DNA from: an uncultured Clostridia bacterium | GTDB taxonomy: Bacteria; Bacillota; Clostridia; TANB77; CAG-508 | Length of the DNA stretch: 64,000 bases | Assembly (NCBI GenBank): GCA_948891265.1 | Contig: CAQUBD010000003.1 | Location: 9,789 to 73,788, forward strand | Direction: 5' to 3' | Shown: positions 2,201-18,087 of the stretch, in pieces | Position numbering within the stretch: the first letter of the stretch is position 1 | How the letters are laid out: every line of letters begins with the position of its first letter | Notes under the pieces: model-generated | The model's database searches: none | The model's input: only the letters and a program-made list of their open reading frames with translations | What the model was told of the DNA's origin: nothing | Translations under genes and position numbers: made by a program

Positions 2201-2228
2201 TCCAGCATATTGGATATTTGTAATCCAA

Positions 2229-2276: not shown

Positions 2277-2281
2277 AATCA

Positions 2282-2806: not shown

Positions 2807-2822
2807 TTTTTTAATCCTTCCT

Positions 2823-3353
2823 TTATAGTTCATAATCATAAATTTTACAATTTTCATTAATATCTGATGAGTTTCCATTGTCTGGTATTCCATTAAAATA
2901 CCAATAAATCGCTCTTGATATTCCTCCATGTGTAACTAATAAAATATTATCATCACTATTACTTGATTTTAATTCATCTAGAAAATCGGATATCCTTTCA
3001 TATACACTTTTCATAGTTTCTAATTCTGGATATAATCTATCTGAATTATAATTCCAAAATTCATCCCATTTAAGTTGCTTGAAAGGAACTTTTTCATATA
3101 TTCCCATATTTCGTTCTTTTATTCTATTTTCAATTATCACAGGAATATTTTTGTTTAATCCAAATAATTTTAATGTATGTTTCGCTCTTGGTATTGGAGA
3201 ACAAAATATTTTATTGATATTTAACTTTTTAATATCTTTTCCAACTGCTATAGCTTGTTGGATACCTGTTTCATTTAACGGCTCATCTTCAGTTGCTATA
3301 ATTTCATTTTTACCCATATTAGTTTCACCATGTCTAATTACATATAATTTCAT
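2823..3353 (-). CDS. Histidine phosphatase family protein (PGAM-like), tandem paralog of the previous gene
   Basis: MKLYVIRHGETNMGK...CSPIPRAKHT... shows the RHGE motif and the conserved C-terminal His region. Confidence 0.8.
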   Translation of the reverse strand: MKLYVIRHGETNMGKNEIIATEDEPLNETGIQQAIAVGKDIKKLNINKIFCSPIPRAKHTLKLFGLNKNIPVIIENRIKERNMGIYEKVPFKQLKWDEFWNYNSDRLYPELETMKSVYERISDFLDELKSSNSDDNILLVTHGGISRAIYWYFNGIPDNGNSSDINENCKIYDYEL

Positions 3354-3439
3354 TACAAATCTCCTAATTACTTAAATAAATATTAATAGTATGTTATCAT
3401 AAAAAATTCATATCTTCAACAAATTTTTACATTAATTTT

Positions 3440-3700
3440 AATCAGCCACATATCCATATCAAAACCACTAACAATATACACACTTAATTTTGTAAAAATC
3501 CCTTTTCCTGTATCATACCCTTTAAACTCCAAACAACTTTTTTTGAGTTTTTGTTTATTTTTGGCATATTAGAAGCCTGTCAAAATATCCACTTTAAAGA
3601 TATGAAAAAAAGCCCCAAGTGGATATATTAAAGGTATCCATTTGAAGCCCATTTTATATCCACTTTAATAATAAATATGGATATAAAAATTGTATAAACA
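3440..3700. promoter_or_regulatory. Cluster of about six TATCCA(C/T)TT-like motifs, direct and inverted, upstream of the cotJC-like gene
   Basis: atatccatatc (3450), atatccacttt (3589), gtggatatatt (3622, reverse), gtatccatttg (3640), atatccacttt (3656), atggatataaa (3676, reverse). Confidence 0.3.
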
Positions 3701-3754
3701 AAATAGTTCCTCCAAACAAAACGAAAACTGGCCTTGGGAAGGGGGAATGAACTA

Positions 3755-3961
3755 ATGTGGACTTATGATAAAATGTTAGAATATCCAATTAATATAAAAT
3801 GTACAGACCCAAGACTTGCAAAAGTTATTATTTCTCAATATGGAGGGCCTGACGGAGAGCTTGCAGCTTCTTTAAGATATTTATCTCAAAGATTTGGTAT
3901 GCCAGATCAAAAAGCTAAAGCTATTTTAAATGATATTGGTACTGAAGAATTAGTGCCTTGA
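3755..3961 (+). CDS. cotJC: 5' segment (fragment 1 of 3) of a CotJC-like manganese catalase family spore-coat gene, interrupted by intervening element A
   Basis: MWTYDKMLEYPINIKCTDPRLAKVIISQYGGPDGELAASLRYLSQRF...DIGTEEL matches the Mn-catalase/CotJC N-terminus (MWVYEK.LQYPV...QYGGPDGELAAALRYL...DIGTEE). An AAGGGGG RBS sits 7 nt upstream of the ATG at 3755. The tool ORF starts at 3734. Homology ends at DIGTEEL, then VP-stop. Confidence 0.8.
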   Translation: MWTYDKMLEYPINIKCTDPRLAKVIISQYGGPDGELAASLRYLSQRFGMPDQKAKAILNDIGTEELVP

Positions 3962-4120
3962 TGATGTCAATAGCTAAAGACAATATTTACAATTAGCTAT
4001 TGACTGTAAAATGTGGTATTTTGAATTTGCAATTTTATGTAAAATATGCTGTACTTTATATAGCAACTGTAAATTTTTCATTTCAAATCTTGCTGAATAG
4101 CAAGTAGAAAGTGTGACAGT

Positions 4121-4360
4121 ATGATTGATGTTATACCTATAGTAACAGCTTTTGATCAAAAAAGCATTTGTTTTTCTGTTGACATTTTTAGCGAAGGTAA
4201 AGAAGTTGGGAAAGCAAGTGTGATACTTGGTAAAATCGGAAAAGATGAACCAAAAGTGAGATTTTATCAGGCGTACGATATATACATAAATATGTCAAAT
4301 GAAATATATTCAAAAGCTACAGAATCATGCATATATGCATCTAAGGTAATTTGGGGATAG
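4121..4360 (+). CDS. Small hypothetical protein, 79 aa
   Basis: ORF with slightly elevated GC. No recognisable family. Confidence 0.3.
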   Translation: MIDVIPIVTAFDQKSICFSVDIFSEGKEVGKASVILGKIGKDEPKVRFYQAYDIYINMSNEIYSKATESCIYASKVIWG

Positions 4361-4385
4361 TAATATCCCCATTTTTTAATACTAT

Positions 4386-5942
4386 TTATTTTGGTATCTT
4401 TGGATATATATGTAATTCAAAATTAGTTGGGTTAGAATCCTTTTTTATTGCTTTTTCAGTTTTTAAATATGTAACTTTTGCTAGAATACTTTTAAGTAAG
4501 ATGTTTCTATCTTCAGCAGCTTCTAGTTTACAATATAAATCTATAACATTTTCAAGTTTTGGTATCATTATTTCTTTTTCGTTCTGTACTTCTGTACTTT
4601 TTTGCAGTATAGAACTATATTCTTCTAATTTGCTTTCTAAATTTTGAATATTATCTTTTATAGTTTTCGAGCGATTTATAAATTCATCTTTGCTATAAAT
4701 ACCATTTTCTAAAAAGTCATATATTTTATCAAGTTTAGTATTTTCTTTTTCTAATTCTTTTTTGGTAGTAGATATAGACTTTTCAATTATTTTAGTATTT
4801 TCAGTATTTGAATTATCTTTGACTTCATAATCTACTTTGTAATTTTCAAGCCAAATTTTTAATGCTTCAATAATTTTATTTTCAACAATATAAAGTTTAG
4901 AACTTACATTGTCACATTTAGAATTAGAACACATAAGAGTTGCAGGTTTATCAGCTTTTGCATAAGGTCGTCTTTGCATTGGCTTGCCACATTTCTCACA
5001 AAACACTAAACCAACTAATGGATTTTGAATAATATTACTATGTTTAACTTTTGGAGTATTTTGTTTTCGCTTTTCTTGGACTAATTCCCAAGTTTTATTA
5101 TCAATAATAGGCTCATGTAATCCATTATAAATTAAATAGTCTTGATTACGAGGTCTACTTATAATAATATGTCCATTTTTCGTTTTCTTTTTTTGTTTCC
5201 TTCTATTCCAAACAATCTTACCAATATAGGTAGGATTAGAAAGAATATCTTTAACAGAAGAAATAGTCCATTCATTAGAAATTCTAGGTTTTAAATTCAT
5301 ATCATTTAACTGTTTTACAACTGAATTTATAGTGTTACTTTCAAAGGTATATAATCTAAAAATTTCTTTAACAATAGGTGCTTCATCTTGATTTACAGAT
5401 AAAGAATAGCCTTTTGAATCTTTTAGTTTAACTCTATCATATCCAAATGGAGCAATATTGCCAACGAATTTACCTTCAGAAACAGAAATTTCACGACCTC
5501 TTTGTAGACGCCTATTGATTGTCTTATATTCTCTTCTAGACATAAATAAGCCAAATTCAAAATATTCTTCATCAAACTCATTATCTGGGTCATAGGTTTT
5601 AACAGGTGTAATAATTTTTGTATGAGAATATTTAAAAGCCTTTGAAACTCTACCTTGATCAGCAGTATCACCACGAGCAAGTCTTTCTACTTCTACAACT
5701 AAAACACCAGTCCATTTCTCATTTTCAACATCTTTAAGAAGTTTTTGCATTTCTTTTCTTTCACTAATCGTTTCACCACTTACAACTTCTCTATAAATTT
5801 TTGAGATATGTAGGTTTCGTTTTTCAGCTAAAGTAGTTAGAATTTTCTCATGTCTTGCTAAAGTTTCGCCTTCTCCATATTTTTCAGATTCTATATCTTC
5901 TCTTGATTTTCTTAAATATATTGCATATGTGCCATCTTGCAC
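4386..5942 (-). CDS. Large serine recombinase, 518 aa
   Basis: N-terminus AIYLRKSREDIESEKYGEG... (S-R-E-D catalytic motif). It also has a recombinase domain, a Cys-containing zinc-ribbon region (CEKCGKPM...CSNSKC) and a coiled-coil C-terminus. Confidence 0.9.
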   Translation of the reverse strand: MQDGTYAIYLRKSREDIESEKYGEGETLARHEKILTTLAEKRNLHISKIYREVVSGETISERKEMQKLLKDVENEKWTGVLVVEVERLARGDTADQGRVSKAFKYSHTKIITPVKTYDPDNEFDEEYFEFGLFMSRREYKTINRRLQRGREISVSEGKFVGNIAPFGYDRVKLKDSKGYSLSVNQDEAPIVKEIFRLYTFESNTINSVVKQLNDMNLKPRISNEWTISSVKDILSNPTYIGKIVWNRRKQKKKTKNGHIIISRPRNQDYLIYNGLHEPIIDNKTWELVQEKRKQNTPKVKHSNIIQNPLVGLVFCEKCGKPMQRRPYAKADKPATLMCSNSKCDNVSSKLYIVENKIIEALKIWLENYKVDYEVKDNSNTENTKIIEKSISTTKKELEKENTKLDKIYDFLENGIYSKDEFINRSKTIKDNIQNLESKLEEYSSILQKSTEVQNEKEIMIPKLENVIDLYCKLEAAEDRNILLKSILAKVTYLKTEKAIKKDSNPTNFELHIYPKIPK

Positions 5943-6005
5943 ATTTCCTCCTTTCCTTGTAATTTGTCTTTAACTTAGCCTTATTATATCTGTAATTGCA
6001 ACAAA

Positions 6006-6149
6006 TTACAACAAAGAAGGATTTATTTTTTTTATTAAATTAACAATAACATTATCTATATATTCTTTTTGATTAGTCGTATTTTCTACAATATAATCAT
6101 CATAAAATTTTACTTTAGTATTTTCTAATATGTATTCTTCTAATAACAT
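6006..6149 (-). CDS. Small ORF (47 aa) immediately upstream of the recombinase; candidate accessory factor
   Basis: An AAGAGG RBS precedes the internal ATG. The tool ORF runs 6006..6218. No homology recognised. Confidence 0.25.
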   Translation of the reverse strand: MLLEEYILENTKVKFYDDYIVENTTNQKEYIDNVIVNLIKKINPSLL

Positions 6150-6354
6150 ATAAATCGCCTCTTTAAAATTTATGAAAAAAATATAAAAAAATACCCAAGA
6201 CAAACTTGTCTTGAGCAAATTTATATTTTTTCTATGATAGCATTATATGATGGGCAATTTATAAAATCAATTCCCTTTTATTTCCCTTTTTTCTAAATTA
6301 GTTAGTAATAGAAATAAGATTTATTTAAATAAGATAAAAGTAGAAAATAAATTC

Positions 6355-6383
6355 TTGCAAATACGATAATTTTATGTTAATAT
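6355..6383 (+). promoter_or_regulatory. Sigma-A-like promoter candidate for the radical SAM gene
   Basis: ttgcaa, then 17 nt, then taatat, about 50 nt upstream of the ATG at 6435. Confidence 0.3.
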
Positions 6384-6434
6384 TAATATTAGTTTAAAGT
6401 TAGCAAAAAATAAAAATAGAAAGGATATGATTAT

Positions 6435-7352
6435 ATGAATTCTAAATATGTTGCTATTGCAGTTACTACTGAATGTAACTTGAAATGTCCATATTGCCAA
6501 AGTACAGGAGAAAGTATTCCAAATGTGCAAGGTATGTGGGATTATAACCGGTTAAGAGAAGTTATAACAGCTTTTTTAGAAGTTGGTTATAGGAATTTTA
6601 GAATTACAGGTGGAGAACCTACCACAGTTCCATATTTAGGAGAATTATTAGATTTTCTTCTACAAGATTCTGATGTGAAAGTACGAATAAATACCAATGG
6701 TTGTGATATAGAAAAATATGTAGACCATTTAAGCTCGCAAACAGAAGTAATATTTAGTGTAGATGGATTAAAAAATGTTTTTTTTCCTAAAAGGTTAACA
6801 GATGAGTTACTAAGGAAAATACAATATTTGCAGTCAAAAAACATTTCAATAAGACTAAACTGTGTAGTTACAAAACACAATTCCAATGAAATACTTGAAT
6901 TAATACAATTTTGTTCTAAAGAAGGATTGAATTTAAAATTGCTTGATTTGTCTCCTAGAACAGACTATCAGGGAAAAATTCAGAATGATTTTTGGAATAA
7001 TAACTACTTTGGATTAAACAAATTGTGTATTCCTTTTCCTAAGGTTGCTTCGGAATTTAGAACCAGTATGATAAAAAAGGGAACAGGAATACCTATGAGT
7101 GGATATAGTTTAGGAAACGGACATTGGCTACAAATAAAGGATTCTAGTAAGAAACCTTATTATGCTTTAGTATGTAAGTATTGTCCTTATAAAGATAATT
7201 GTATAGAAGGTGTATTTTCTCTTTCATTATCTGTTGGTGAAATTTTAAGAGTAGCCAATTGTGTTAATCAAAATTATTGGATAAAACTTAGAGGTTTGAA
7301 TCAAAGACAAATTGAAGAAGAACTAAAGAAAATGGAAAAAATCTTTTTTTAA
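6435..7352 (+). CDS. Radical SAM protein (MoaA-like core with a C-terminal Cys cluster), function unknown
   Basis: CNLKCPYC (Cx3Cx2C) and the FRITGGEPT glycine-rich SAM motif. C-terminal CKYCPYKDNC...C resembles a twitch/SPASM-like auxiliary cluster. Confidence 0.85.
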   Translation: MNSKYVAIAVTTECNLKCPYCQSTGESIPNVQGMWDYNRLREVITAFLEVGYRNFRITGGEPTTVPYLGELLDFLLQDSDVKVRINTNGCDIEKYVDHLSSQTEVIFSVDGLKNVFFPKRLTDELLRKIQYLQSKNISIRLNCVVTKHNSNEILELIQFCSKEGLNLKLLDLSPRTDYQGKIQNDFWNNNYFGLNKLCIPFPKVASEFRTSMIKKGTGIPMSGYSLGNGHWLQIKDSSKKPYYALVCKYCPYKDNCIEGVFSLSLSVGEILRVANCVNQNYWIKLRGLNQRQIEEELKKMEKIFF

Positions 7353-7372
7353 GTAATAATTAAAAAACAAAA

Positions 7373-7397
7373 AGCGAGGGAAACCTCGTTTTTTCTA
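7373..7397 (+). terminator. Rho-independent terminator after the radical SAM gene
   Basis: gcgagggaaacctcg hairpin followed by tttttt. Confidence 0.55.
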
Positions 7398-8104
7398 AAT
7401 TATTTAAAAAACTTAGAATTTATAATAATATTAGAAATAGAAAATTATTATAATTTTACAAAAATTTGAATCTATAAAGAGTGATTTAATCCGTTATAAC
7501 AATTCTAATGTGCTTTATAAAATCAAGTCAAGGTTAAAATGAATGTGCTATCGCACAACCTTGACTTAATTTTATAAGCACATTGTCTTTTCAGTTAAGA
7601 GGATTTAAGGATAAGTATATTTAATTAAGTAGACATAAGTACATTTCAAGAGCAAAATACCTCATTAGAAATGAGGGCAGGAAAGAGAGTGTTCACACAT
7701 CGCTTATACACATTGAAGGACAAGCCTTCAAGAGTTAATAAAAGAACAAAAATTTTAAGCAGATATGATGTAGAAATTCACTGGGTGAACTGGTTCAAAC
7801 CCGCTATTCTTCGTTGAAATTGGAAATAGTGAACTAAAAAATTAAAAAAGTTCACTCATTTTAGGCAAAAGTTCACCAAGTGTACTAAAAAATTTTCTGA
7901 AATTTTGTAAAACAGTTACCGAGGAATCCTCGATAACTAGTTATAATAATACAAATTACAAAAATTTTAAGCTTGTTCCAAAATGGAACAAGCTCACTTT
8001 GTGTACTTAGTATTTGTGAAAATTTGTTAAAAAGTATTGATTTTGCAAATAAAATAACTTATAATGAATATAATAGTAGTGGATATTTAATATCTACTAT
8101 AATT

Positions 8105-8227
8105 AAAAATGTGAGTCGCAACCCTATTTGCGTCGAATAAATGGATAGGTGAAAAAATGTGAACCGCAACCCTGCTTGCGAGATATAAATGTGCAGGTGG
8201 AAAAATGTTAATTATAGTAAAATGTGG
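8105..8227 (+). ncRNA. Candidate type III antitoxin RNA (ToxI-like): 2 full and 1 partial tandem repeat of ~47-49 nt
   Basis: R1 is 8105-8151 and R2 is 8152-8200; each begins AAAAATGTGA. R1-R2 identity is about 80%, with compensatory changes cctat...atagg (R1) versus cctgc...gcagg (R2) that preserve a stem. A partial third unit (8201-8227) repeats the AAAAATGT boundary motif. Placement is promoter-like region, then repeats, then terminator, then toxin gene. Confidence 0.6.
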
Positions 8228-8260
8228 GGTCTATAAAATTAATTTAGATCCCATATTTTC
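8227..8260 (+). terminator. Terminator between the repeat array and the toxin gene, as in toxIN-type loci
   Basis: Stem gggtcta/tagatcc (7 bp, one G-U pair) followed by cauauuuuc. Confidence 0.45.
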
Positions 8261-8280
8261 ATAAAAGGAGTTAAATAATA

Positions 8281-8757
8281 ATGATAATAGAAGATGGAAA
8301 ATTTTATTTTATAAAAGATGAGTTTTTTGATATATTTAAAGATTATAAATTGATGGAAAACAAAGAATGCGGAAATAAAAGACCTTGCTACTTTTGCTTT
8401 AGAGATAGAAAAAACAAAGAAATAATATGGTTTGTTCCAATATCGACTAAATATGATAAATATAAAAAGATATATGATAATAAAAAATTAAAAATTGGAA
8501 ATAAACCAGTATATAATTTTGTTTTTGGTAATGTATTAGGTAAAAAAGCTGTATTTTTAATACAAAATATATTTCCAACAACAGAAGAATATATATTAGA
8601 GAAATATACAAATTCAAATATAGATGTAGAAATACCTACAGTAGTAAAAAATGAAATTATAACTACTGCATTAAGAGTTGTGAGACTTGCAGAAGAAGGC
8701 ATACATATTCCATTTTATAATATTGTTGAAATGAGAAATATTTTGTTAAAAGAATAA
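8281..8757 (+). CDS. ToxN/AbiQ-family type III toxin (endoribonuclease) candidate, 158 aa
   Basis: KFYFIKDEFFDIFKDYK...KRPCYFCF...WFVPISTKYDK follows the ToxN/AbiQ pattern (FY.I...Y...L..FD....RP..G......YFAPLSSPK). Size ~160-170 aa, AGGAG RBS. Confidence 0.6.
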   Translation: MIIEDGKFYFIKDEFFDIFKDYKLMENKECGNKRPCYFCFRDRKNKEIIWFVPISTKYDKYKKIYDNKKLKIGNKPVYNFVFGNVLGKKAVFLIQNIFPTTEEYILEKYTNSNIDVEIPTVVKNEIITTALRVVRLAEEGIHIPFYNIVEMRNILLKE

Positions 8758-8772
8758 AGAATAAAAAATATC

Positions 8773-8797
8773 ATATGTGCAGAAATTGCACATATGG
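8773..8797. repeat. Perfect 10-bp palindrome catatgtgca-gaaatt-tgcacatatg downstream of the toxin gene
   Basis: Inverted repeat seen directly. An A-run precedes it on the + strand, so it would act as a terminator only for the minus strand. Confidence 0.4.
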
Positions 8798-8962
8798 GCA
8801 ATAATAAAAAACAACAGTAAATTATAAGTTATAATAATTTAAAACGAAAATAAACTTAATCCGTTCACTTAGTGTACTAGTTTAATGCACCAAGTGAACT
8901 TATTTAAATTTATAGTATTTTACAGCCAATAGTACTAGATTTTTTGTAATTGACATCATCAT

Positions 8963-9085
8963 GGTACTGAAGAATTAGCACACTTAGAAATGGTTGGAAC
9001 AATAGTACACCAATTAACAAAAAATGCATCAATAGAAGAAATTGAAAAAGCGGGATTAAGTGCATATTATACAGATCATGGGGTG
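8963..9085 (+). CDS. cotJC: Middle segment (fragment 2 of 3) of the CotJC-like Mn-catalase gene
   Basis: GTEELAHLEMVGTIVHQLTKNASIEEIEKAGLSAYYTDHGV matches the central Mn-catalase region (DIGTEELAHLEMIATMVYKLTKDATPEQLREAGL..HY.DHG). The frame runs into a stop at 9092 after leaving homology. Confidence 0.75.
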
Positions 9086-9134
9086 GGTTTGTAATATCTC
9101 CTAATCCTGCTTTTTATTTTTTACTAATATAAAA

Positions 9135-9968
9135 TTAATTATCATTTTCAAATAATTCTTTAATATATAATTCTCTATTTTTAAGTTCATTGTTTTTACC
9201 TTGTAATAAATTCTCAAAAAACATTACTAAATAATCAAATGTAGGATAAATTCCTTTTGGAATATTTCCATAGTTACTTCTAACTAGTGCATTTCTAAAA
9301 TATAAGCTTTTATCTTTAAACATATCATTATTAACATTAAATCCCATATTATTAAGATATTTTTCAATAAATACTGCTGTAGTTCTAGTATTTCCTTCTC
9401 CAAATGGATGTACTTGCCAAATGCTTGAAGTGAATTTTGAAATATGTTTAATTAATTCATCATTATTTAGTTTTGAATAATCAAATTCTTTTTCTTCTTT
9501 AAAATCATAATCAAAATAGCTTTCTATATCTTGATAATTTACATATTTAACGGTATGGCCATTTAGGATGTTCTCTTTTTTGGTAATATTATAATTCCTA
9601 TAATTACCTGCAAAATCATAAATATCTTTAAATAGGTATTTATGAATATTCTTTAAAGTAATAGGACTAAAACCAAAGCTCTTATCTTCTAAAAGCTGTG
9701 CTATTCTTAAAGATACTAAATCGCATTCTTTTTCTTTTTGAATATTTATATCATTATGATTTTGTGTTTCATAATATGTTTTTAATAAGTTTTCTACTTC
9801 GTAATATTTTAATTCTCCATTAATATTTTTTTCAGATAAGTCTAATAAATATTTAGAAGGCTTTAAATTATCAACTTTATTTAATCCAATACCCGTATTC
9901 CAATATTCTTGTTTTTTTGTAGTATCAGTTATTTCATTTTCAATTATATAATTTTCTTCATTAGACAT
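9135..9968 (-). CDS. Fic/DOC family protein (putative AMPylator / toxin-like)
   Basis: HPFGEGNTRTTAVF matches the Fic motif HPFx(D/E)GNGR with one substitution. Length 277 aa. Confidence 0.8.
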   Translation of the reverse strand: MSNEENYIIENEITDTTKKQEYWNTGIGLNKVDNLKPSKYLLDLSEKNINGELKYYEVENLLKTYYETQNHNDINIQKEKECDLVSLRIAQLLEDKSFGFSPITLKNIHKYLFKDIYDFAGNYRNYNITKKENILNGHTVKYVNYQDIESYFDYDFKEEKEFDYSKLNNDELIKHISKFTSSIWQVHPFGEGNTRTTAVFIEKYLNNMGFNVNNDMFKDKSLYFRNALVRSNYGNIPKGIYPTFDYLVMFFENLLQGKNNELKNRELYIKELFENDN

Positions 9969-10045
9969 ATAAAAACCTCCTAAAATTTCTCTTTTTCATA
10001 CCTTAATATTATACCATAAAATGCCTAAACTTACTATAGTTTTGC

Positions 10046-11674
10046 CTAAAAATTCCAATGAATTACAACATCTTGAGTTTTAGTCTTTTTGTCTGCTCTG
10101 CAAATTTCATCTGTAACAGGCAAAGCCTTAACAGCTGAAAATTTTTCTCCAATTTCAATATAATCTATAAAGCTATTAACAATATCATAATTAAGTTCTT
10201 TAAAATCTTTAAAGTGATTAATTATTTTCTCTTTTTGTTCTTTTATAAATTTACTGTTTAATTCTTTTTCCTTTAAATTAGATAAATCATTTTCGACTTT
10301 TATTAGTTCTTTTTGCTTTGCTGATTTATCAGATAAAAAAGAGGAGTTTAAATCTTCAAATACATCTTCTGGAACTTTGCCACTTACTTTGTTTAAGTAA
10401 AGTTCTTTTATAGCTTTATTAATGCTTTCCATATCTTTAGATAAAGTTTCTTTTTTGTTTTCTAGTAATTTGGATTTATTTATGTTGTCATTTGAAACAA
10501 ATAACTCATCAGAAATATTATCAAAGTCATAAAATGCTAAAATTTTCTCTTTAATTTTTTCTGTTACTAAATTTTTAAGATTTTCATAGCCAATAGAATG
10601 TGTAGTGCAAGTTCCATATAACTTTCTAGAGCCTTTACAAGAAAAATAAATGTAACCTCTATCATTTTTGCATTTATAAAGTTTTGTTCCACAATCTAAA
10701 CATACTAGCTTATTAGCAAATATATGAACTTCGCCATTTTTACATCTTCTTGTTTTATTTTTAAAGATTTCTTGAACTTTATAAAATTGTTCTTTAGTAA
10801 TAATAGGTTCGTGAGTATTTTCTACAATAATCCATTCTGATTTAGGCTGATTTACCATTTTTTTAGATTTATAGCTTACTTTTTTATTATAACCTTGTAC
10901 CAAATTACCAATATAAACTTCATTTTTCAGTATTTTACTGACTGTAGATTCACACCAATAGTCAATATTTTTGCCTTGATTTCTAAAATTAATTCCTTGT
11001 GACTGTTTATATTTAGTTGGTGTTAAAATACCTTTGTCGTTTAATATTTGAGCAATTTTAGTAACACCATTTCCTTGTTCATAAAGGTTAAAAATCAATT
11101 TAATAACATCGGCTACTTCTGTATCAATAACAAGTTTATTTTTATTCTCTGGACTTCTTTTATATCCATAGCACACAAAAGAGCCAATATGTAATCCTTG
11201 TTTTCTTTTACTATCAAATGTTTTTCTAATATTTTCTGATAAATCCTCTAAATACCACTCATTAACTAAACCATTGATTTGTCTTGATTTCTTATTTCCT
11301 TTATCTAATGTATCAACATGATCTACAAGGCTAACAAATCTAATATTCCACTCGATAAATTTATTGTGTAGGTATTTTTCAACTATTTCCATATCACGAG
11401 TAAATCTACTTTGTGTTTTACAAAGTACAATATCAAATTTATGGCTTTTAGCATCTTCTAATAATTTATTAAATTCAGGTCGTTCACTGTCGATTCCAGA
11501 ATAGTCCTCATCACAGTAAATGTTATAAATATCCCAGCTCCTTTCTATTGCATAATTGATTAGCATAGATTTTTGATTTTGGATACTTTCGCTTTCATCG
11601 TTTTCGTGTAGTTTGTCATCATCTTCACGAGAAAGCCTACAATAAATTGCCACTCTCATAAGTTTACCCTCCAA
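10046..11674 (-). CDS. Large serine recombinase, 542 aa
   Basis: MRVAIYCRLSREDD... catalytic motif, a recombinase domain, a Cys zinc-ribbon (CLDCGTKLYKC...C) and a coiled-coil C-terminal region. Confidence 0.9.
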   Translation of the reverse strand: MEGKLMRVAIYCRLSREDDDKLHENDESESIQNQKSMLINYAIERSWDIYNIYCDEDYSGIDSERPEFNKLLEDAKSHKFDIVLCKTQSRFTRDMEIVEKYLHNKFIEWNIRFVSLVDHVDTLDKGNKKSRQINGLVNEWYLEDLSENIRKTFDSKRKQGLHIGSFVCYGYKRSPENKNKLVIDTEVADVIKLIFNLYEQGNGVTKIAQILNDKGILTPTKYKQSQGINFRNQGKNIDYWCESTVSKILKNEVYIGNLVQGYNKKVSYKSKKMVNQPKSEWIIVENTHEPIITKEQFYKVQEIFKNKTRRCKNGEVHIFANKLVCLDCGTKLYKCKNDRGYIYFSCKGSRKLYGTCTTHSIGYENLKNLVTEKIKEKILAFYDFDNISDELFVSNDNINKSKLLENKKETLSKDMESINKAIKELYLNKVSGKVPEDVFEDLNSSFLSDKSAKQKELIKVENDLSNLKEKELNSKFIKEQKEKIINHFKDFKELNYDIVNSFIDYIEIGEKFSAVKALPVTDEICRADKKTKTQDVVIHWNF

Positions 11675-11724
11675 TCGGTAAACTACTCATTTTGTACAAC
11701 CCCATTATACAATAACAAGTAGTT

Positions 11725-11853
11725 TTAATCAACGCTCTTTGCAAATTCATTTATAATTAATTTATTAACAATATTATTTATATATTTTATAATATCATCT
11801 ATATTTTCATATTTGTTCTTTTCAATAACATTAAAATTAACTTTTTCGCACAT
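11725..11853 (-). CDS. Small ORF (42 aa) upstream of the recombinase; candidate excision/directionality factor or regulator
   Basis: Strong GGAGGAAC RBS 5 nt before the ATG; MCEKVNFNVIEKNKYENIDDIIKYINNIVNKLIINEFAKSVD. No homology recognised. Confidence 0.3.
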   Translation of the reverse strand: MCEKVNFNVIEKNKYENIDDIIKYINNIVNKLIINEFAKSVD

Positions 11854-12058
11854 AACAGGTTCCTCCTTTTAGCAAGAGCTCCCATACTCCTGCTATTAAT
11901 TCATATTCAAAAGGGCTTGTATTTGTGCTAAAAAGCAAAAAAATAAAGCCCTTTTACAATCTTGGCTTTAAAATAAAAATATATTTAATTAACATATGTT
12001 TTTCCTCATTTCTTACTATATAAAAACAAAATTTTATTAAAAATCTAATAAAATCTTG

Positions 12059-12526
12059 TTACCTACTAAAACAACATACATGTTTATATTTTTGTATTGG
12101 TACTTTGATATTCATATTTATAGTTTTTGGAATATCAAATCCGACTTTTAATTTTCTATCTATTACTAAATTTCCTTTACTATTTGTATGATAAGAACTT
12201 GAATTCCATTTTGCAAAAGCATAGTCTGACATAATATTAGTAGTATAAGATAATTCTATTGCATCTTGTTTTTGCTGTGATATCATTTGTTCATAACTGT
12301 TGTCATCTTTCTTTGGTCTGTCATAAGTTTTAAGATATTCTTGTAAATAAACTTTTCTATTTTTAGCATTTGTTTTTTTACGAGTTTCCTTTTCTTGTTT
12401 GTTTCTATTGTCAGCTTTTACAACCTTTGAAACATAAGGACAGCTTTTTCCAACTATTTTAGCAATTTCATTTTGTTTTAGATGGTCATTATAATATAAG
12501 TTTAAAATCTGTTCTTTAGTATTCAA
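12059..12526 (-). CDS. Helix-turn-helix DNA-binding protein (sigma-70 region-4-like HTH at the N-terminus)
   Basis: LKQNEIAKIVGKSCPYVSKVV is a typical HTH. The long basic tail is uncharacterised. Confidence 0.55.
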   Translation of the reverse strand: MNTKEQILNLYYNDHLKQNEIAKIVGKSCPYVSKVVKADNRNKQEKETRKKTNAKNRKVYLQEYLKTYDRPKKDDNSYEQMISQQKQDAIELSYTTNIMSDYAFAKWNSSSYHTNSKGNLVIDRKLKVGFDIPKTINMNIKVPIQKYKHVCCFSR

Positions 12527-12585
12527 TTTTTCTTTTTCCTCCTTTGGTTAACTTTTTGTTTGCAAGATTTTAAATACAATTCGCC

Positions 12586-12614
12586 TATTGACATTTGTTA
12601 TTAATTGTTGTATT
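12586..12614 (+). promoter_or_regulatory. Sigma-A-like promoter candidate
   Basis: ttgaca, then 17 nt, then tattat, in the divergent intergenic region upstream of 12744. Confidence 0.35.
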
Positions 12615-12743
12615 ATTATATTGTAAAAAATCTTACATAATAATTTCATATTGTTATTATACGATTATAATTTATATTTGTCAATACAATTTTAAACATT
12701 TTATTAAAATTTTTTACAAAACAAAAAACGAAGGAGATAAAAA

Positions 12744-13877
12744 ATGAGAGAATTACCTCGCCATCTTGTTTTAGAAGATTTCTATATATGGTTTAATATG
12801 AAAGATAAAGAAGAATATTATGCAACACCATTATATTTATATAATGTATTAAGAAAAGATACAGACAAAGAAAATGATGAAGAAAAAAAGAAAGATGAAA
12901 CAAGAGTATATTTAGAGTTAGAAAAGGATATTTCAAAAACAAAATTAAATAAGAAAAAAGAAGTTATTAGACAACCTTCAACTATTTATATTCATTATGC
13001 AGAAAGCATAGGCTCATTGTTAATAAATTTTTTAAATGCTGACTTTTCATCTTTTCAATCTGCTTATAATACATTTTTTTATGCCTATGGTTTTGAATTA
13101 ATAAAAGAATATACACCTTACATATATTCAAAAACTGATGAGTGTATAACAGATGTAGAATTTATGAAAATGTTAGAAGATATTTATAACACAAGCCTAG
13201 ATGATTTATTAGAATGGCAAGATAATTTCAAGAAATGTGTAGATTTTGTATATAACTTAAATGGAAATGAAGAATTAAAAGAATATAATACATATTCAAA
13301 ATTTGTTGCTTATACAATTAAACACAACGAACTTTATACATATTCACAAGATGTAGAGGTTATATTAGATAATTATATAAATATACACAACCATCATCAC
13401 AATGAAAGTATAGAATATTTAATAAAAGGTATTGAAGATAAAAATCCAAATTTAGAATTACACAATGTTTATACAAGTACAAAATTGAGAAGTATTTGTT
13501 TTACTATATTAGATCAACTTGTAAGACAAGAAAATCTATCAATTAAAACTTGCCAAATTTGTGGTAGATATTTCATACCAACCTTTAGACAAAATGAAAT
13601 TTATTGTGATTTGAAAAATGTTGATGGTACACCAACTTGTAGAGATAAGGGAGCAAGTGAAACTTATAAAAAGAGTCTTAAAAGTAATCCAGCATTATTA
13701 CTTTATAGAAGAACATATCAGCAAAAGGTTATGACAGTATATAGAAACAAAGAAAATAAGCAATTAAAGAAAGATTTTGACAAATGGAAAAAAGAAGCAC
13801 AAGAAAAAATTAAATTATTCAAAAAAGGCAAACTAGATGAAGATACTTTGTATAATTGGATGATTGAAAATAAATAG
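12744..13877 (+). CDS. Hypothetical protein (377 aa) with a C-terminal Cys cluster; possible TnpY-like accessory protein
   Basis: C-terminal CQICGRYF...YCDL...PTCRDKG zinc-ribbon-like cluster. No family confidently recognised. Confidence 0.55.
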   Translation: MRELPRHLVLEDFYIWFNMKDKEEYYATPLYLYNVLRKDTDKENDEEKKKDETRVYLELEKDISKTKLNKKKEVIRQPSTIYIHYAESIGSLLINFLNADFSSFQSAYNTFFYAYGFELIKEYTPYIYSKTDECITDVEFMKMLEDIYNTSLDDLLEWQDNFKKCVDFVYNLNGNEELKEYNTYSKFVAYTIKHNELYTYSQDVEVILDNYINIHNHHHNESIEYLIKGIEDKNPNLELHNVYTSTKLRSICFTILDQLVRQENLSIKTCQICGRYFIPTFRQNEIYCDLKNVDGTPTCRDKGASETYKKSLKSNPALLLYRRTYQQKVMTVYRNKENKQLKKDFDKWKKEAQEKIKLFKKGKLDEDTLYNWMIENK

Positions 13878-13881
13878 AAAT

Positions 13882-13916
13882 AAATCCCTAAGTAAATTAA
13901 CTACTATAGGGATTTA
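13882..13916. terminator. Bidirectional terminator hairpin between convergent genes
   Basis: aaatcccta...tagggattt, a 9-bp perfect stem. Confidence 0.45.
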
Positions 13917-13939
13917 TTTCGTATGTGAGGAATCAATTA

Positions 13940-14293
13940 TTACTTATACTTTTTATTATTTCTTTCGTCATTTTTCTTTGCATCTATTGCCAGCATAACA
14001 ATGCCTATCATAGATAGAACGGCAATAGGCGCAGCTACATAAGGTTCCATCCAACCTTTTGTACTGCTTATAATTGAACACGCACATATAACACAGAGAA
14101 GAAAAAATAATAAGAAAAAATGAGTGACTGATATGAATTTATCATACAAGTTTGATTCCTCTGATTTTCTTACAAATTGTTCAAGAGCTTTATCTTCAAA
14201 AGGTTCTGACCGCTCTTGTTCTTCTAACATCTGTTGAAATTCTTCTTCTGACATTTCTAGAGCTTTTTTTACTGTCATTCTCTTGTCATCCAT
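13940..14293 (-). CDS. Hypothetical membrane protein (two C-terminal TM helices), higher GC
   Basis: Hydrophobic segments FFLLFFLLCVICACSII and APIAVLSMIGIVMLAI. Confidence 0.45.
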   Translation of the reverse strand: MDDKRMTVKKALEMSEEEFQQMLEEQERSEPFEDKALEQFVRKSEESNLYDKFISVTHFFLLFFLLCVICACSIISSTKGWMEPYVAAPIAVLSMIGIVMLAIDAKKNDERNNKKYK

Positions 14294-14483
14294 AAAATTT
14301 ACCTCCTATTATTATGTTGGAATTTTCCATTACATTGTCAATTATATCAAAAAATTCTCTAAAATATTTGTATTTTACATAAAAATATGATAAACTATTA
14401 AATATAAAATTTTATAATCTCCTTTTGGAGTTTATCATAGATAACAAGTAAACAGCACAATTAATATTGGAGGAGGTAAACAT

Positions 14484-14882
14484 ATGAAAGTAAAAACAGA
14501 ATATGTATCTATAACTCAGGCAGAAAGGATATTCGAAGTTATAAAGCAATCATTAAGCGTTACAAAGGATATTCAAATTTTTGTAGCAGAAGAATTGATT
14601 AAAGAATTACGGAGAAATGGCGTAGAACACCATGTTTATGAATTTAACGGAATGGGTTGTCATCATTATAATAAAGATGATGATGGTTTTGGAGGAGAAA
14701 CTTGGTATGGATATCATAAAGAACATGCTTTTTCACCTGTAATATCTTCAGCAAGCTTTATTTCCAATTGTAAAGGTTATTATCAGTTAGTAGAATTTCC
14801 AAATAAGAAAGTTCCAAGTGATTATTTACACTATGCAGTGGGATTTAAGGAATTGTTATTGATTGAAGTAGATACAATCTAA
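14484..14882 (+). CDS. Hypothetical protein, higher GC
   Basis: ORF preceded by a GGAGGAGG RBS. No family recognised. Confidence 0.5.
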   Translation: MKVKTEYVSITQAERIFEVIKQSLSVTKDIQIFVAEELIKELRRNGVEHHVYEFNGMGCHHYNKDDDGFGGETWYGYHKEHAFSPVISSASFISNCKGYYQLVEFPNKKVPSDYLHYAVGFKELLLIEVDTI

Positions 14883-14924
14883 AAAAGAGTAGCTTGTAAA
14901 CACATTTGTTAAGGAGGTACCAAA

Positions 14925-15116
14925 ATGGCGAATGAAAGAAATGTAGATTTAATGAACAATTTCGACAAGAGAAATGTTGAAAGTATTGACAAGCATATTA
15001 GAGAAGATGAACTTCCCCAAGAAGTATATGGAATGCTTGTTGATGAATCTGGACACGGAAAAGTCAAAGTATCAGAAGAAAGCAGAAAAATTTGTGCAAA
15101 AAATCTTTTGAAATGA
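14925..15116 (+). CDS. Small hypothetical protein, 63 aa
   Basis: AAGGAGG RBS. A terminator hairpin (aatgagag...ctctcatt, 15140-15175) follows. Confidence 0.4.
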   Translation: MANERNVDLMNNFDKRNVESIDKHIREDELPQEVYGMLVDESGHGKVKVSEESRKICAKNLLK

Positions 15117-15192
15117 TTTTTAAATTTCAAATCGCTAATGGAATGAGAGCCTATATGGACTCTCATTTCATTTCTACGATTTATATCTTATA

Positions 15193-16371
15193 TCAAATTT
15201 CTAAATCCCACTCTTTTTCTCTTTCTTCATGTTCAAGTTGTTTTACTGGATCAATAAATGTATGAGTGTCTTCTTCAAATTTTTTAACTAATTCTTTTGA
15301 TTCGCCAATACCAAATTTATGGCAAATCCAAACTATAAATTTATCAACAGTTTCATAGAATTTATCTATAATTTTGTGTAAATGACTATTTTCCTTTTCT
15401 AAACTTTTAATTTTACTTTTATATTTCCATTCAATATCAAATTCTTTTTCCTTATATTCTGCTTTAATATTGTTTACTTGATTATGAAGTTCTTTATTAT
15501 CAGCAAGTATAGAGTTTCTTTCTTTTTGATATTTTTCAGCTACATTAACTAAATTTACCTGTTTGGATAGTTCATTATGCAATTTTAAATTTTCTTGATA
15601 CAATTCCATAATTTTATCATCTTTTGGCTTAATAATTTCGTTTTCTACTTTTTCTCTATTAAGTTTTATTAGTTTAATATCATTTATATCTGGAGTTTCG
15701 GGTAATTCTAGTTTTATATTATCTAAAATCTTTTTAGTGTTTTCAAAATTAGTCAATTTCTTTAAATCCTCAATTTTTTCGTGTTTTGCACCAGTTTCTT
15801 CTACTGGTAAACCTCGCTCTAAATCAAACCCTTTTGAAGTTATATATTTGTGAAAAGCATTTTGTAGTTGTCTGTAACTATCTCTGCCTTTCCAAAAATC
15901 TCTACAGCATATTTTATCAATGTCATTTCCTTCTTTATCTTTTGTATGGATTACTGGTATATACACTAAATGCATGTGTGGAGTGGTTTCATCTAAATGT
16001 ACTGCTGCTGATACAATATACTTTTCTTCAAGATTATTATAATTACATACAAATTTATAACTTTCTTTAAAATATCTTTTAGTTTCTTCTAAACCAATCT
16101 TATTAAAAAAAGCATTATCAGAAGTAATCATTATTTCACACATGATATTACTATTACTTCTAATAGTGCCTTTTAAATCATATTCCTTTTTCATTTTATC
16201 AAATTCTTTTATATAAGTTAATTCGTTTTTCTTACACCAAAAATTGAGATGTGTTCTTGTAGGATCAATATCTTTATTAGAATGACCTTTTGACCTTCTA
16301 TCATTGTGAATGTATGATCCTTGTGCATCCACTCTTGTTAATTTATCATTTCTTATAATAGCATAGCTCAT
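15193..16371 (-). CDS. mob: MobV-family (Pre/Mob, pMV158 MobM-like) mobilization relaxase
   Basis: N-terminus MSYAIIRNDKLTR...HNDR...HSNKDIDPTRTHLN and HLDETTPHMHLVYIP (HxDE...PHxH) match MobM motifs. The coiled-coil C-terminus is typical of the family. Confidence 0.85.
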   Translation of the reverse strand: MSYAIIRNDKLTRVDAQGSYIHNDRRSKGHSNKDIDPTRTHLNFWCKKNELTYIKEFDKMKKEYDLKGTIRSNSNIMCEIMITSDNAFFNKIGLEETKRYFKESYKFVCNYNNLEEKYIVSAAVHLDETTPHMHLVYIPVIHTKDKEGNDIDKICCRDFWKGRDSYRQLQNAFHKYITSKGFDLERGLPVEETGAKHEKIEDLKKLTNFENTKKILDNIKLELPETPDINDIKLIKLNREKVENEIIKPKDDKIMELYQENLKLHNELSKQVNLVNVAEKYQKERNSILADNKELHNQVNNIKAEYKEKEFDIEWKYKSKIKSLEKENSHLHKIIDKFYETVDKFIVWICHKFGIGESKELVKKFEEDTHTFIDPVKQLEHEEREKEWDLEI

Positions 16372-16389
16372 ATCTTCTTTGAACCTCCT

Positions 16390-16560
16390 TCTTTGCTCAA
16401 GATATTCTTTGAATGTCTAACATACTAGACAAACAAGTTTGTCCCGTATGGCAGGGTTTAGCAACCCTACAACCCAAACCTAAAAATTGCTACTCGCATT
16501 TTTAGATTATTTCATAAAAAATGCTTATCGCAATTTTTATGAAATATGAGCAAAAAAATA
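16390..16560. promoter_or_regulatory. Candidate oriT / mob promoter region
   Basis: Inverted repeats gacaaac-aa-gtttgtc (16420-16437), agggtt-tagc-aaccct (16445-16460) and tcataaaaa...tttttatga (16510-16545), immediately upstream of the relaxase gene. Confidence 0.3.
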
Positions 16561-17242
16561 AATTTTTTTACTCATTTCACTTTAGCAACTATCAAGCAGA
16601 AGCCAGAGGGAGAGAGATAAAGTGAATTAGGTGTAATAATCCCATTTGTGAAAAATAGAATTATTACACCTATATAAGTTGAAACCGTCGGTCGTTCGCC
16701 TCGTTTCATAGGTAGTCTAGTAAGTAGTGATATTACTACTATAATTGCTGATGCTTAGGCTGTTAAACTTTTAGTTGTTACAGCCTAAGTATGCAAAATA
16801 ATTGAAAATTATTTTGTATTACCTTACATCTTTGTTCATACTTGCCCAAACTTTTTACAATTACAAATCCATATCAAATATGCCACCGAATACTCTTTTA
16901 TTATTGTGAGTCTGTGTTCTAAAATCTCACTCACGCACTTTGTATAATTAGACTGCTTATACTAATACGCGCATACTTTATAGCATCGGCTTGCTAAACC
17001 AAGAACTTTTATAGAGGTTCTGCATATCTCTTGCAATAAAAAAAGACATCTGTAACTTTTGCATTACAAATGACTTTCTTATTTAATATTTAATTATCTT
17101 TGTCCTCACAATCGATTTTAAGCAGAATAAAATTGTAAGGTAATAAATAATGCCTACAAAAAAATGTAGGCATAAAACTTCTTGTACAAAATAAGTAGTT
17201 ACATATATATTTTCTTTTAGGATAGATAACAAACACACACCA

Positions 17243-17566
17243 CACGGTGTAGATGTATACCCATCATCAGCAGCAGGAGTACCATTTACAGCAGCATATA
17301 TAGCATGTAAAGGAGATCCAATAGCAAATCTACAGGAAGACTTAGCAGCAGAGCAAAAAGCCAGAGCAACTTATGAAAAATTAATAAACTTATGTAGAGA
17401 TAATCCAGATGTAGTAGATCCACTTCGTTTCTTAAGAGAAAGAGAAGTAGTACACTTCCAAAGATTTGGAGAAGCATTAAGAGGAGTACAAGACAAATTA
17501 GCTGAAAAGAAGTTTTATATGAATGACATGAAACCTTATACAAATGATTGTGGATGTAATAAATAA
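17243..17566 (+). CDS. cotJC: 3' segment (fragment 3 of 3) of the CotJC-like Mn-catalase gene
   Basis: HGVDVYPSSAAGVPFTAAYIACKGDPIANLQEDLAAEQKARATYEKLINLCRDNPDVVDPLRFLREREVVHFQRFGEAL... matches the Mn-catalase C-terminal half (NAAGVPFTAAYIQAKGDP...AAEEKARATY...DPLRFLREREIVH.QRF). Stop at 17564-17566. Confidence 0.8.
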   Translation, partial: HGVDVYPSSAAGVPFTAAYIACKGDPIANLQEDLAAEQKARATYEKLINLCRDNPDVVDPLRFLREREVVHFQRFGEALRGVQDKLAEKKFYMNDMKPYTNDCGCNK

Positions 17567-17578
17567 TAAAAGAAAAAG

Positions 17579-17634
17579 CAGGATCTGAACGATACCCAAA
17601 AAAAGTAGAGTTCAGATAATCCTGTTTTTTTTGT
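17579..17634 (+). terminator. Rho-independent terminator after the cotJC-like gene
   Basis: caggatctgaac...gttcagataatcctg stem followed by tttttttt. Confidence 0.6.
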
Positions 17635-17739
17635 ATGTATTTAATATTGAGAATAAAATTTTAGAAATATATCGCAAAATAATATTTTTATGTTATAATG
17701 ATAGTGAAAAAAGAAAATAGAAGAAATTATTAAATAAAT

Positions 17740-18087
17740 TTGATAAAGGAAAATAATATGAATAAAGATGAAATTGTAAAATTTTGTTTAACATTACCTA
17801 GCACATTTGAAGACTATCCTTTTCCAAATGACAGTATTAGTACAGTAATGAAACATACAAAAAATAGAAAATGGTTTGCATTACTGATGGAAGTCAAAGG
17901 AGAATTATATTTAAATGTAAAAACAGAACCTGATTACTCTGATATATTAAGAAATACTTATGATTATATTATTCCAGCATATCACATGAACAAGGAACAT
18001 TGGAACACAATAGTTGTTAGCAACAAAGCAGATAAAACAATAATAAAAGAACTTATTAGCCAGAGTTATGAATTAACTAAAAAATAA
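17740..18087 (+). CDS. MmcQ/YjbR family DNA-binding protein
   Basis: FCLTLPSTFEDYPFPND...WFAL...AYHMNKEHWNTI resembles YjbR-family proteins. The start may be the ATG at 17758 (MNKDEI). Confidence 0.65.
   Translation: MIKENNMNKDEIVKFCLTLPSTFEDYPFPNDSISTVMKHTKNRKWFALLMEVKGELYLNVKTEPDYSDILRNTYDYIIPAYHMNKEHWNTIVVSNKADKTIIKELISQSYELTKK

Follow-up and report, generated by a model that had tools for sequence, protein, structure and literature searches.

An insertion in cotJC and its ends

The window analysed here is a 64,000-nt stretch of low-GC DNA (about 25%) from an uncultured Clostridia bacterium (GenBank assembly GCA_948891265.1, contig CAQUBD010000003.1), in which the sporulation gene for the manganese (Mn) catalase CotJC lies in three pieces (3755..3953, about 8963..9078 and 17245..17568). 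Between the second and third pieces sits a discrete insertion of 8,166 bp (9079..17244), here called element B. An earlier, sequence-only reading of this DNA had proposed that a sporulation gene is interrupted by a mobilizable element; the cotJC pieces on both flanks bear out the interruption, and the bounds given then (9086..17249) have been refined from the bases at which identity to other copies switches on and off. A contig of the metagenome-assembled genome GCA_948708035.1 matches the window at 100% over 13.5 kb. Related loci come from gut and faecal samples, in genomes labelled uncultured Clostridium sp. or Clostridia bacterium.

Using the listing of open reading frames (ORFs) and profile searches of the window, we recovered every gene of the sequence-only reading at exact or very near coordinates (Table 1). 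Nine ORFs occupy the 8.2 kb. They include a large serine recombinase (LSR) for integration and excision and a MobV relaxase with a predicted origin of transfer (oriT), and type IV secretion system domains occur in none of them. This is the gene content of an integrative mobilizable element (IME, sensu Guedon et al. 2017), a class defined as having no coupling-protein or mating-pore genes (PMC5704250). Among the proteins of element B, the integrase gave the sole PHROG match with a phage function, and element B is therefore not a prophage. A DNA search with the whole element against plasmid and phage records returned no match, and an Rfam scan of 3500..18000 gave sub-threshold noise only.

The ends of element B could be placed to the base. 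Identity to other copies switches abruptly and at the same bases in every copy, on the left at ...GA(T/C)|CATGGGGTGGGTTTG and on the right at ...CACACACCACA(C/T)GG|host. In the window, the left attachment site (attL) reads GAT-CA-TGGGG and the right (attR) CCA-CA-CGGTG. Base 17245 is C in the window and T in copies within other hosts; it is thus a host base, and the core shared by attL and attR in the window is CA only. When the ends are joined in silico, the resulting attP (...ATAACAAACACACACCA-CA-TGGGGTGGGTTTGTAAT...) forms an imperfect 25+25-bp dyad centred on CA, with 20/25 positions symmetric, the P' arm being an imperfect reverse complement of the P arm (20/25). The joint itself is predicted to read ...CACACACCA-CA-TGGGGTGGG..., or CACACACCACATGGGGTGGGTTTG as one string. 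A predicted attP of this kind, about 50 bp long and arranged as a dyad around a non-palindromic 2-bp core common to attB, is the architecture expected for a serine integrase.

Excision would restore the host gene. In-silico removal of element B together with element A, a second LSR element that lies in cotJC about 35 codons upstream (3954..8978), yields an uninterrupted 206-aa CotJC, which is collinear codon for codon with the intact gene of a related cotJA-cotJB-cotJC operon (L093; 93% aa and 83% nt identity). The empty site in L093 reads TATACAGACCATGGAGTTGATGTATATCC, and the restored attB predicted for the window's host allele is ...TAYACNGAYCAYGGNGTNGAYGT.... Element B is inserted at the CA of a His codon (...YYTDH|GVD...). 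Intact CotJC proteins are numerous (88-96% identity). Element B thus has the defining property of an intervening element, in that it splits the coding frame of a mother-cell sporulation gene and its precise in-silico excision restores that frame. In C. difficile, the Mn-catalase coat genes are SigK-dependent (PMC3789822).

Table 1 Features of element B and its junctions, in window coordinates
Feature	Position	Strand	Description
attL	9052..9104		Host cotJC half-site; CA crossover 9077-9078; P' arm 9079..9103 (TGGGGTGGGTTTGTAATATCTCC...)
Fic protein, 277 aa	9135..9968	-	VbhT-like; PF02661 E 2e-12 (above cut-off)
LSR, 537 aa	10046..11659	-	Resolvase, Recombinase, Zn_ribbon_recom and DUF4368 domains; catalytic Ser in YCRLSRED
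LSR leader	11660..11732	-	Sigma-A-like promoter TTGATT-17-TGTATAAT (scan 10/12) between orf42 and LSR, then hairpin
orf42, 42 aa	11725..11853	-	Directly upstream of LSR; no family match; candidate recombination directionality factor (RDF)
40-nt block upstream of orf42	11889..11928	-	GCACAAATACAAGCCCTTTTGAATATGAATTAATAGCAGG; candidate regulated promoter, AC-17 nt-AATAnnnT(T)A
orf155, 155 aa	12059..12526	-	Weak N-terminal helix-turn-helix (HTH)
Divergent sigma-70-type promoters	12588..12684		DUF6076 (+) TTGACA-17-TATTAT 11/12; orf155 (-) TTGACA-17-TATAAT 12/12; consensus matches only
DUF6076 protein, 377 aa	12744..13877	+	PF19553 E 4e-11; C-x2-C...C...C cluster
orf117	13940..14293	-	C-terminal half hydrophobic; weak matches only; called in all copies
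orf132	14484..14882	+	Hypothetical; no family match; called in all copies
orf63	14925..15116	+	Hypothetical; no family match; called in all copies
MobV (Mob/Pre) relaxase, 392 aa	15193..16371	-	PF01076 Mob_Pre E 1.9e-38; NCBIfam NF041497 127 bits (cut-off 100)
Predicted oriT	16414..16450	-	14-bp hairpin CATACGGGACAAAC-TT-GTTTGTCTAGTATG (inverted repeat I6), then TTAGACA
Second hairpin, 20 bp	16628..16672		Inverted repeat I2, 90% complementary; about 300 nt upstream of mobV
attR	17218..17270		P arm 17218..17242 (...ATAACAAACACACACCA); CA crossover 17243-17244; host cotJC half-site
cotJC 3' piece	17245..17568	+	Joins 3755..3953 and 8979..9078 to give an intact 206-aa Mn-catalase/CotJC

Recombination and mobilization modules

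The recombinase belongs to the LSR class by its domains (PF00239, PF07508 and PF13408) and its YCRLSRED nucleophile motif, and it matches a PHROG integrase at E 3e-105. The gene had been called from a TTG at 11674; the gene itself stands, and its true start is an ATG five codons inside, behind GGAGG. In an exact look-up, the 537-aa ATG-start form is on record and no exact record of a 542-aa TTG-start form was found. The leader between orf42 and the LSR is nearly invariant in more than 40 divergent elements. It includes a hairpin (11661..11684, minus strand; GTTTACC-GATTGGAGG-GTAAAC) that carries the LSR ribosome-binding site in its loop, and the compensatory stem variant GTTATAC/GTATAAC found in other family members suggests translational control of the recombinase.

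A small ORF beside the recombinase had also been pointed out, and orf42 proves to be a real gene. Its frame is open in all 45 loci compared, which hold 37 distinct protein variants and a nucleotide diversity by codon position of 0.168/0.114/0.271, with the motifs FNVIEKNK and IVNKLI near-invariant. The 40-nt block ahead of orf42 hardly varies among about 42 elements, in which the sequence further upstream is not alignable. Its layout (AC-N17-AATA) is similar to that of the clade's host cotJA promoters (AC-N17-CATA), a type of layout that parallels the mother-cell sigma consensus; it is from this likeness that we infer the sigma-factor class of the orf42 promoter. In SPbeta (sprA/sprB) and C. 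difficile (CD1231/CD1234), the recombinase has a vegetative-type promoter and its small partner gene is regulated separately. Because the LSR of element B likewise combines a vegetative-type promoter with a small partner gene that has a candidate regulated promoter of its own, we propose orf42, by analogy, as its RDF. CD1231 is not controlled by SigE or SpoIIID (PMC3789822), and a SigK-type promoter has been proposed for the RDF of yin (PMC10747680). The 45-aa ORFs upstream of the element A LSR occupy an equivalent place, an analogy of position only (BLASTP E 0.14, hhalign probability 1%).

The relaxase carries the signature of the MOBV class. Its catalytic histidines are intact, with His22 in an HxxR context (...SYIHNDRR...) and HLDETTPHMH (VHLDETTPHMH in the window) corresponding to HxDE...PHxH, both aligned to the MobM domain (PDB 4LVI, E 1e-24). 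Loss of the catalytic His triad, named in the sequence-only reading as grounds for refuting it, is thus not what the alignment shows. The closest plasmid MobV proteins are 25-32% identical. In IMESag-rpsI, a MobV relaxase is reported to drive the transfer of a chromosomal island (PMC5090054).

Palindrome-rich DNA at 16390-16560 had been suggested as the oriT, and our best candidate falls inside that interval. It lies on the relaxase-coding strand, 49 nt upstream of the mobV start, with a predicted G/T nick between 16421 and 16420 in the context GTATG/TTA (hairpin arm plus nick strand CATACGGGACAAACTTGTTTGTCTAGTATG/TTAGACA). A hairpin with a predicted G/T nick at its 3' edge, on the coding strand, is what the cognate oriT of a MOBV relaxase should present. 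In pMV158, the MobM contact site is AAGtaTAGTGTG and the melted nick region TGTG/TTATAC; the nick, 5'-G/T-3', falls where the right arm of IR3 ends on its 3' side, and all of these sites are on the coding (transferred) strand (PMC5863519). The pMV158 nick-region 16-mer matches 16415..16430 with 3 mismatches, 44-59 nt before the mobV start codon. By itself this match is weak, with 3 such matches in 64 kb against 0.8 expected, and the 18-mer at up to 3 mismatches has no match in the window. Nevertheless, the match at 16415..16430 is the only one in the right place and on the right strand, and it closes the hairpin. The motif GTAGT(G/A)TG/TTA occurs at the same position upstream of MobV genes 42-81% identical to that of the window (7 divergent relatives). 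The oriT call thus draws on position, strand, hairpin and conservation, and not on the 16-mer match by itself. A second hairpin further upstream, near-perfect and preceded by a conserved GAACGACCGACGGTTTCA, recurs in L017, L030, L032 and L034 at an unchanged distance from mobV; a single-strand origin or a terminator would be our guesses for it.

A cotJC-targeting family and its recent spread

Scanning one genome per species, we found relatives of the LSR, 72-97% identical in amino acids, in about 55 species-level genomes. Fragments of cotJC lie on one or both flanks in 53 of the 55 loci, the other two contigs ending inside the element, and all 53 loci with readable flanks share the same cotJC codon. 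The target gene is downstream of cotJA-cotJB in at least 33 loci. Among the next-nearest LSRs (41-49% identity), none has cotJC flanks.

Complete elements of the family measure between 2.9 and 11.1 kb, most with an open LSR frame. Their stable components are orf42 and the LSR, present in nearly all members and kept with open frames even in the minimal 2.9-kb elements, which are cores of recombinase and small ORF; at the other extreme, an 11-kb element (L038) has a relaxase, RepL and defence-type cargo. Of 32 complete elements, 18 encode a ParE-type toxin and a 73-aa partner in the slot between LSR and attL, where others have a Fic protein. Nine of the 32 carry MobV, five RepL and four DUF6076; the rest of the cargo differs from element to element, with OLD-family and AAA_15 ATPases among it. 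The span from 11 kb to 2.9 kb offers a natural series for studying the domestication of intervening elements. The recombinase frame is broken in L058-L061, L064, L067 and L069, mostly near codon 200 by a 1-nt length difference, which could reflect a homopolymer assembly error or a genuine frameshift.

In L025, L038 and L059, the plasmid-replication gene repL (PF05732, E 8e-28) lies beside MobV, between attR and mobV, and such relatives may replicate after excision. The presence of RepL beside MobV in five sister elements, and a relaxase/oriT type found on small rolling-circle plasmids, could indicate that element B is a small mobilizable plasmid captured by a recombinase cassette. The window copy, however, lacks RepL and any other recognisable Rep gene, has no DNA match to plasmid records, and every copy seen is integrated in cotJC; we give a plasmid origin of this kind almost no credence.

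Copies of element B itself are found in several hosts; samples that contain it include SRR31428989, SRR13102923, SRR21764067, SRR26138719 and ERZ14864014. Exact-protein look-up listed the identical recombinase in 28 blocks of a public assembly collection, where all 23 contigs read carried it, and the identical relaxase in 6 contigs. Aligned to the window, the copies are 97-100% identical within the element and 72-84% identical in the cotJC flanks. In L001, L005, L007, L008, L011 and L012, the first 1,000 nt inside either end are 100% identical, and the 100 nt of host DNA adjoining the ends are 68-78% identical. Copies 100% identical at their ends thus occupy at least five differently diverged cotJC genes. 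Element B has clearly moved horizontally, and very recently, into diverged hosts, in agreement with the link to horizontal transfer drawn in the sequence-only reading. These identical copies suggest how non-viral elements that interrupt sporulation genes spread between bacteria. One further contig (L103/L111 880..940; ENA ERZ15121395 NODE_4017) has an identical Fic gene and element left end joined to ...CCCCA-TG-TGGTATATATGTGTATTTCATC. The joined sequence is unlike cotJC and similar to the family right-end arm (12/16), and a 1164-aa ResIII/Eco57I protein is encoded next; the joint may be of attP type, from a circle or tandem of some larger relative, or may mark a secondary integration site.

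Spread of this kind could also have come about without self-encoded transfer. Element B might be domesticated and non-transferable, its relaxase a relic, and its dispersal due to LSR integration after transduction, transformation or hitch-hiking in a larger element. MobV is missing from most family members, which nonetheless occupy the same site in many species; one MobV remnant exists (in L024), and element B can adjoin a large conjugative element in the same gene, which makes co-transfer conceivable. On the other hand, MobV is full length with all catalytic residues, its oriT is conserved alongside it across divergent pairs, and ends that are 100% identical in several hosts, the oriT side included, leave no time for decay. 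We regard a relic relaxase as quite improbable.

What the observations above establish directly is the anatomy of element B, with its junctions placed to the base and its catalytic motifs intact, the similarity of its oriT, a strict target throughout about 55 species and a very recent horizontal spread; we infer when excision takes place, what orf42 and Fic do, and that mobilization actually occurs. We consider it likely that element B is a cotJC-specific IME of a previously undescribed, widespread family, and this judgement covers the full explanation, excision and transfer steps included. For integration, the LSR would carry out a crossover between attP, about 50 bp long, and an attB within cotJC, the exchange falling on the CA of the His codon. 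The reverse reaction would join the cotJC halves exactly and release a circle, probably with orf42 as directionality factor; it is probably triggered during sporulation in the mother cell, the compartment of cotJC expression. On the circle, MobV would nick the oriT hairpin at GTATG/TTA and guide one strand out through the mating pore that a conjugative element in the same cell provides. The Fic protein, which fills the toxin-antitoxin slot of sister elements, probably has an addiction or anti-phage function.

A candidate helper for such transfer was found next to a copy of element B. In L107 (6500..16346; Logan SRR34340702_6988), the element-A site of cotJC is occupied by a larger conjugative-type element encoding RadC, DUF3846, S-adenosylmethionine (SAM) synthetase (MetK), DUF3560, a small resolvase and a VirD4/TraG-type coupling protein, and the element B copy lies 124 bp away, across the middle cotJC piece. 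Element B can therefore share a host with a conjugative element, and cotJC may host conjugative elements.

How closely excision is tied to sporulation bears on two further readings. One extends the IME explanation into a mother-cell launch pad: a mother-cell sigma factor would induce orf42, excision would repair cotJC for the spore coat, MobV would export the circle through a co-resident conjugative element (sometimes in the same gene), and the forespore would keep the integrated copy. If this were true, transfer would cost the host lineage nothing, and cotJC and the cotJ operon would be a shared docking site for defence-cargo LSR elements in gut Clostridia; we treat it as possible, if doubtful. 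The other makes element B a plain mobilizable island, for which cotJC is a conserved, dispensable landing pad, the gene being inactivated and excision not tied to sporulation. In line with this, the recombinase promoter is strong and vegetative-type, three elements in the cotJ operon make full restoration demanding, cotJ mutants of B. subtilis have mild phenotypes, and many LSR elements target conserved genes without a developmental reason. Against it stands the intact orf42 and LSR pair in the stripped-down 2.9-4 kb elements of dozens of species, a retention expected if excision is selected for restoring cotJC. In addition, orf42 has its own conserved upstream block, AC-N17-xATA like the host cotJA promoters, and every characterised LSR element in a mother-cell sporulation gene excises at sporulation (PMC5595907, PMC4191935, PMC5025042, PMC10747680). 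We judge a plain landing pad unlikely.

Several results weigh against the IME explanation as a whole or against one of its steps. MobV is carried by only about a quarter to a third of family members, and the sampling of members with and without it is too unlike for a fair contrast of their recent spread. No circular form was seen, as the attP joint occurs in none of the JGI metagenome contigs or in IMG/VR; an empty site of exactly the window's host allele was likewise absent from the JGI metagenomes. More distant intact alleles are common. The flanks come from metagenome assemblies, and the 'different hosts' could partly be paralogous cotJC loci. As for developmental excision, no homology to a known RDF was detected for orf42, the -10-like element in front of its gene lacks the C of the mother-cell CATA consensus, and the cotJ operon here appears to be split by three LSR elements, all of which must excise for function. 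Finally, the Fic motif departs from the canonical HxFx(D/E)GNGRxxR, with G to T and the last R to A.

Other insertions were observed in and around the same operon. Element A is bounded by a 16-bp direct repeat, GGTACTGAAGAATTAG (3938 and 8963), and its radical-SAM protein (6435..7352) fits the PADLOC models for prokaryotic viperins (E 1.9e-14); in many related genomes, its site holds two LSR lineages in opposite orientations. At 1..3750, a third LSR gene runs off the start of the window (minus strand, N-terminus near 1160). Of cotJB, no more than the final ~9 codons (NWPWEGG..) are left, at 3720-3750 directly before cotJC, and a third element thus appears to interrupt cotJB. LSRs of this third type also lie beside cotJC in L019, L052, L053, L059 and L061.

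The cargo of element B includes the Fic-family gene that had been recognised earlier and that its Pfam match supports. The protein matches VbhT in the PDB (E 9e-10), has an active-site motif that reads HPFGEGNTRTTA in this alignment, and also matches the PADLOC candidate defence family PDC-S72 (E 5e-98). Its gene adjoins attL, the place taken by the ParE-toxin pair in 18 of 32 related elements. The gene once described as encoding an HTH protein (orf155) is there, with the HTH at sub-threshold level only (KorB E 0.016, Sigma70_r4 E 0.085); it matches PHROG 9628 (unknown function; E 5e-6) and co-occurs with DUF6076 and MobV in L017, L031, L032, L034, L062 and L069. The Cys-cluster protein noted before belongs to DUF6076, and C270, C273, C288 and C299 are invariant in 34 homologs. 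Its 597 homologs in 5.8 billion proteins include none with a name. The AlphaFold2 model is confident (predicted local distance difference test 84), and Foldseek found no match to it in the PDB below E = 2. DUF6076 is not mentioned in the searchable literature, and tblastn against plasmids gave only two weak matches, on a C. difficile megaplasmid in an unrelated context. The higher GC previously attributed to the genes at 13940..15116 is weak: GC at 14001-15000 is 0.29-0.31, which stretches inside and outside element B equal.

Comparison with known elements

The sequence-only reading had likened element B to Tn4451/Tn4453. Its core, an LSR and MobV/oriT IME with Fic cargo, holds; its five-for-five parallel with TnpX, TnpV, TnpY, TnpZ and TnpW is not supported. 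For comparison, we used a Tn4451-like element on plasmid pD610-HI2 (L013), with annotated TnpV, cargo, Mob, TnpW and DUF4368 recombinase. No ORF of element B matches the TnpV or TnpW families of Pfam even at E <= 10, where we take TnpV to be PF14198 and TnpW PF14202; the TnpW check covered orf42 and orf63. Nor is there BLASTP similarity to the TnpV or TnpW of L013. The LSR is 31% identical to the DUF4368 recombinase of L013 (E 2.5e-77), and MobV is 26% identical to its Mob over the N-terminal 156 residues only, so that a TnpZ-type arrangement, a Mob/Pre relaxase with an upstream oriT, is shared at superfamily level only. Among PDB structures, SprA/YokA of SPbeta (9DXH, E 1.6e-11) is the best full-length match of the LSR, and the TnpX catalytic domain (2MHC, E 2.6e-11) scores no better.

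Like Tn4451/Tn4453, element B is a small (6-8 kb), non-conjugative element of Clostridia with a DUF4368-type LSR excising a circle at a 2-bp core, here a predicted step. Unlike them, it lacks TnpV/TnpW homologs, carries Fic instead of catP, and uses one fixed cotJC codon (53 of 55 loci) and a CA core, where the crossover dinucleotide of Tn4451 is GA. The conserved small partner ORF suggests dependence on an RDF. Tn4451 has low integration specificity and a 2-bp crossover core, its recombinase TnpX (written TndX) requires no directionality factor, and its MobV relaxase and upstream oriT serve mobilization in trans, which is here predicted (PMC5704250). It might still be argued that element B is a Tn4451/Tn4453 family member with catP exchanged for Fic: the two functional modules are the same, a Mob/Pre relaxase has its oriT upstream, and the LSR has the DUF4368 tail typical of TnpX-like proteins as well as the 2MHC match. 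The low identities, the missing TnpV/TnpW homologs and the equally good SprA match stand against membership, as do a gene order that differs from the contiguous Mob-TnpW-LSR of L013 and a strict cotJC specificity with CA core set against the low specificity of Tn4451 (PMC5704250), and we find it very unlikely. By its sequence, the resemblance of element B to Tn4451 is one of class (LSR and MobV IMEs of Clostridia), not of family.

The predicted oriT resembles that of pMV158 in its place on the coding strand, a short way before the relaxase gene, and in a G/T nick at the 3' end of the hairpin arm (PMC5863519); it differs in hairpin sequence, and nicking is here a prediction. The proposed recombination logic is that of SprA/SprB and CD1231/CD1234, in which the recombinase promoter is vegetative-type and a small sporulation factor flips directionality. 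Unlike those partners, orf42 has no detectable similarity to known RDFs, and its promoter class is deduced from layout only. In PDB 9DXD, SprA is fused to the small protein YotN, presumably its directionality factor. Genome engineering could make use of a new recombinase with defined attP/attB and a candidate 42-aa RDF.

In the searchable literature, we came across no intervening element described as having a relaxase and oriT of its own; interruption of cotJC is mentioned there once, in passing, for Laceyella sacchari (bioRxiv 10.1101/2022.02.25.481979). The authors who described gin state that its transfer mechanism is unknown (PMC5595907). A non-viral element in a sporulation gene with a complete mobilization module offers a testable route for the movement of such elements. 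Element B shares with skin (sigK), SPbeta (spsM), vfbin (spoVFB), gin (gerE) and yin (yabG) an LSR element that splits a mother-cell sporulation gene, a frame restored by precise excision and a small accessory gene near the recombinase (PMC5595907, PMC4191935, PMC5025042, PMC10747680), and like gin it is non-viral. It differs from all five in its target, cotJC, and in that developmental excision is here deduced. Element B also brings a relaxase and a predicted oriT of its own, whereas skin, SPbeta, vfbin and yin are prophages or their remnants and gin is without transfer genes.

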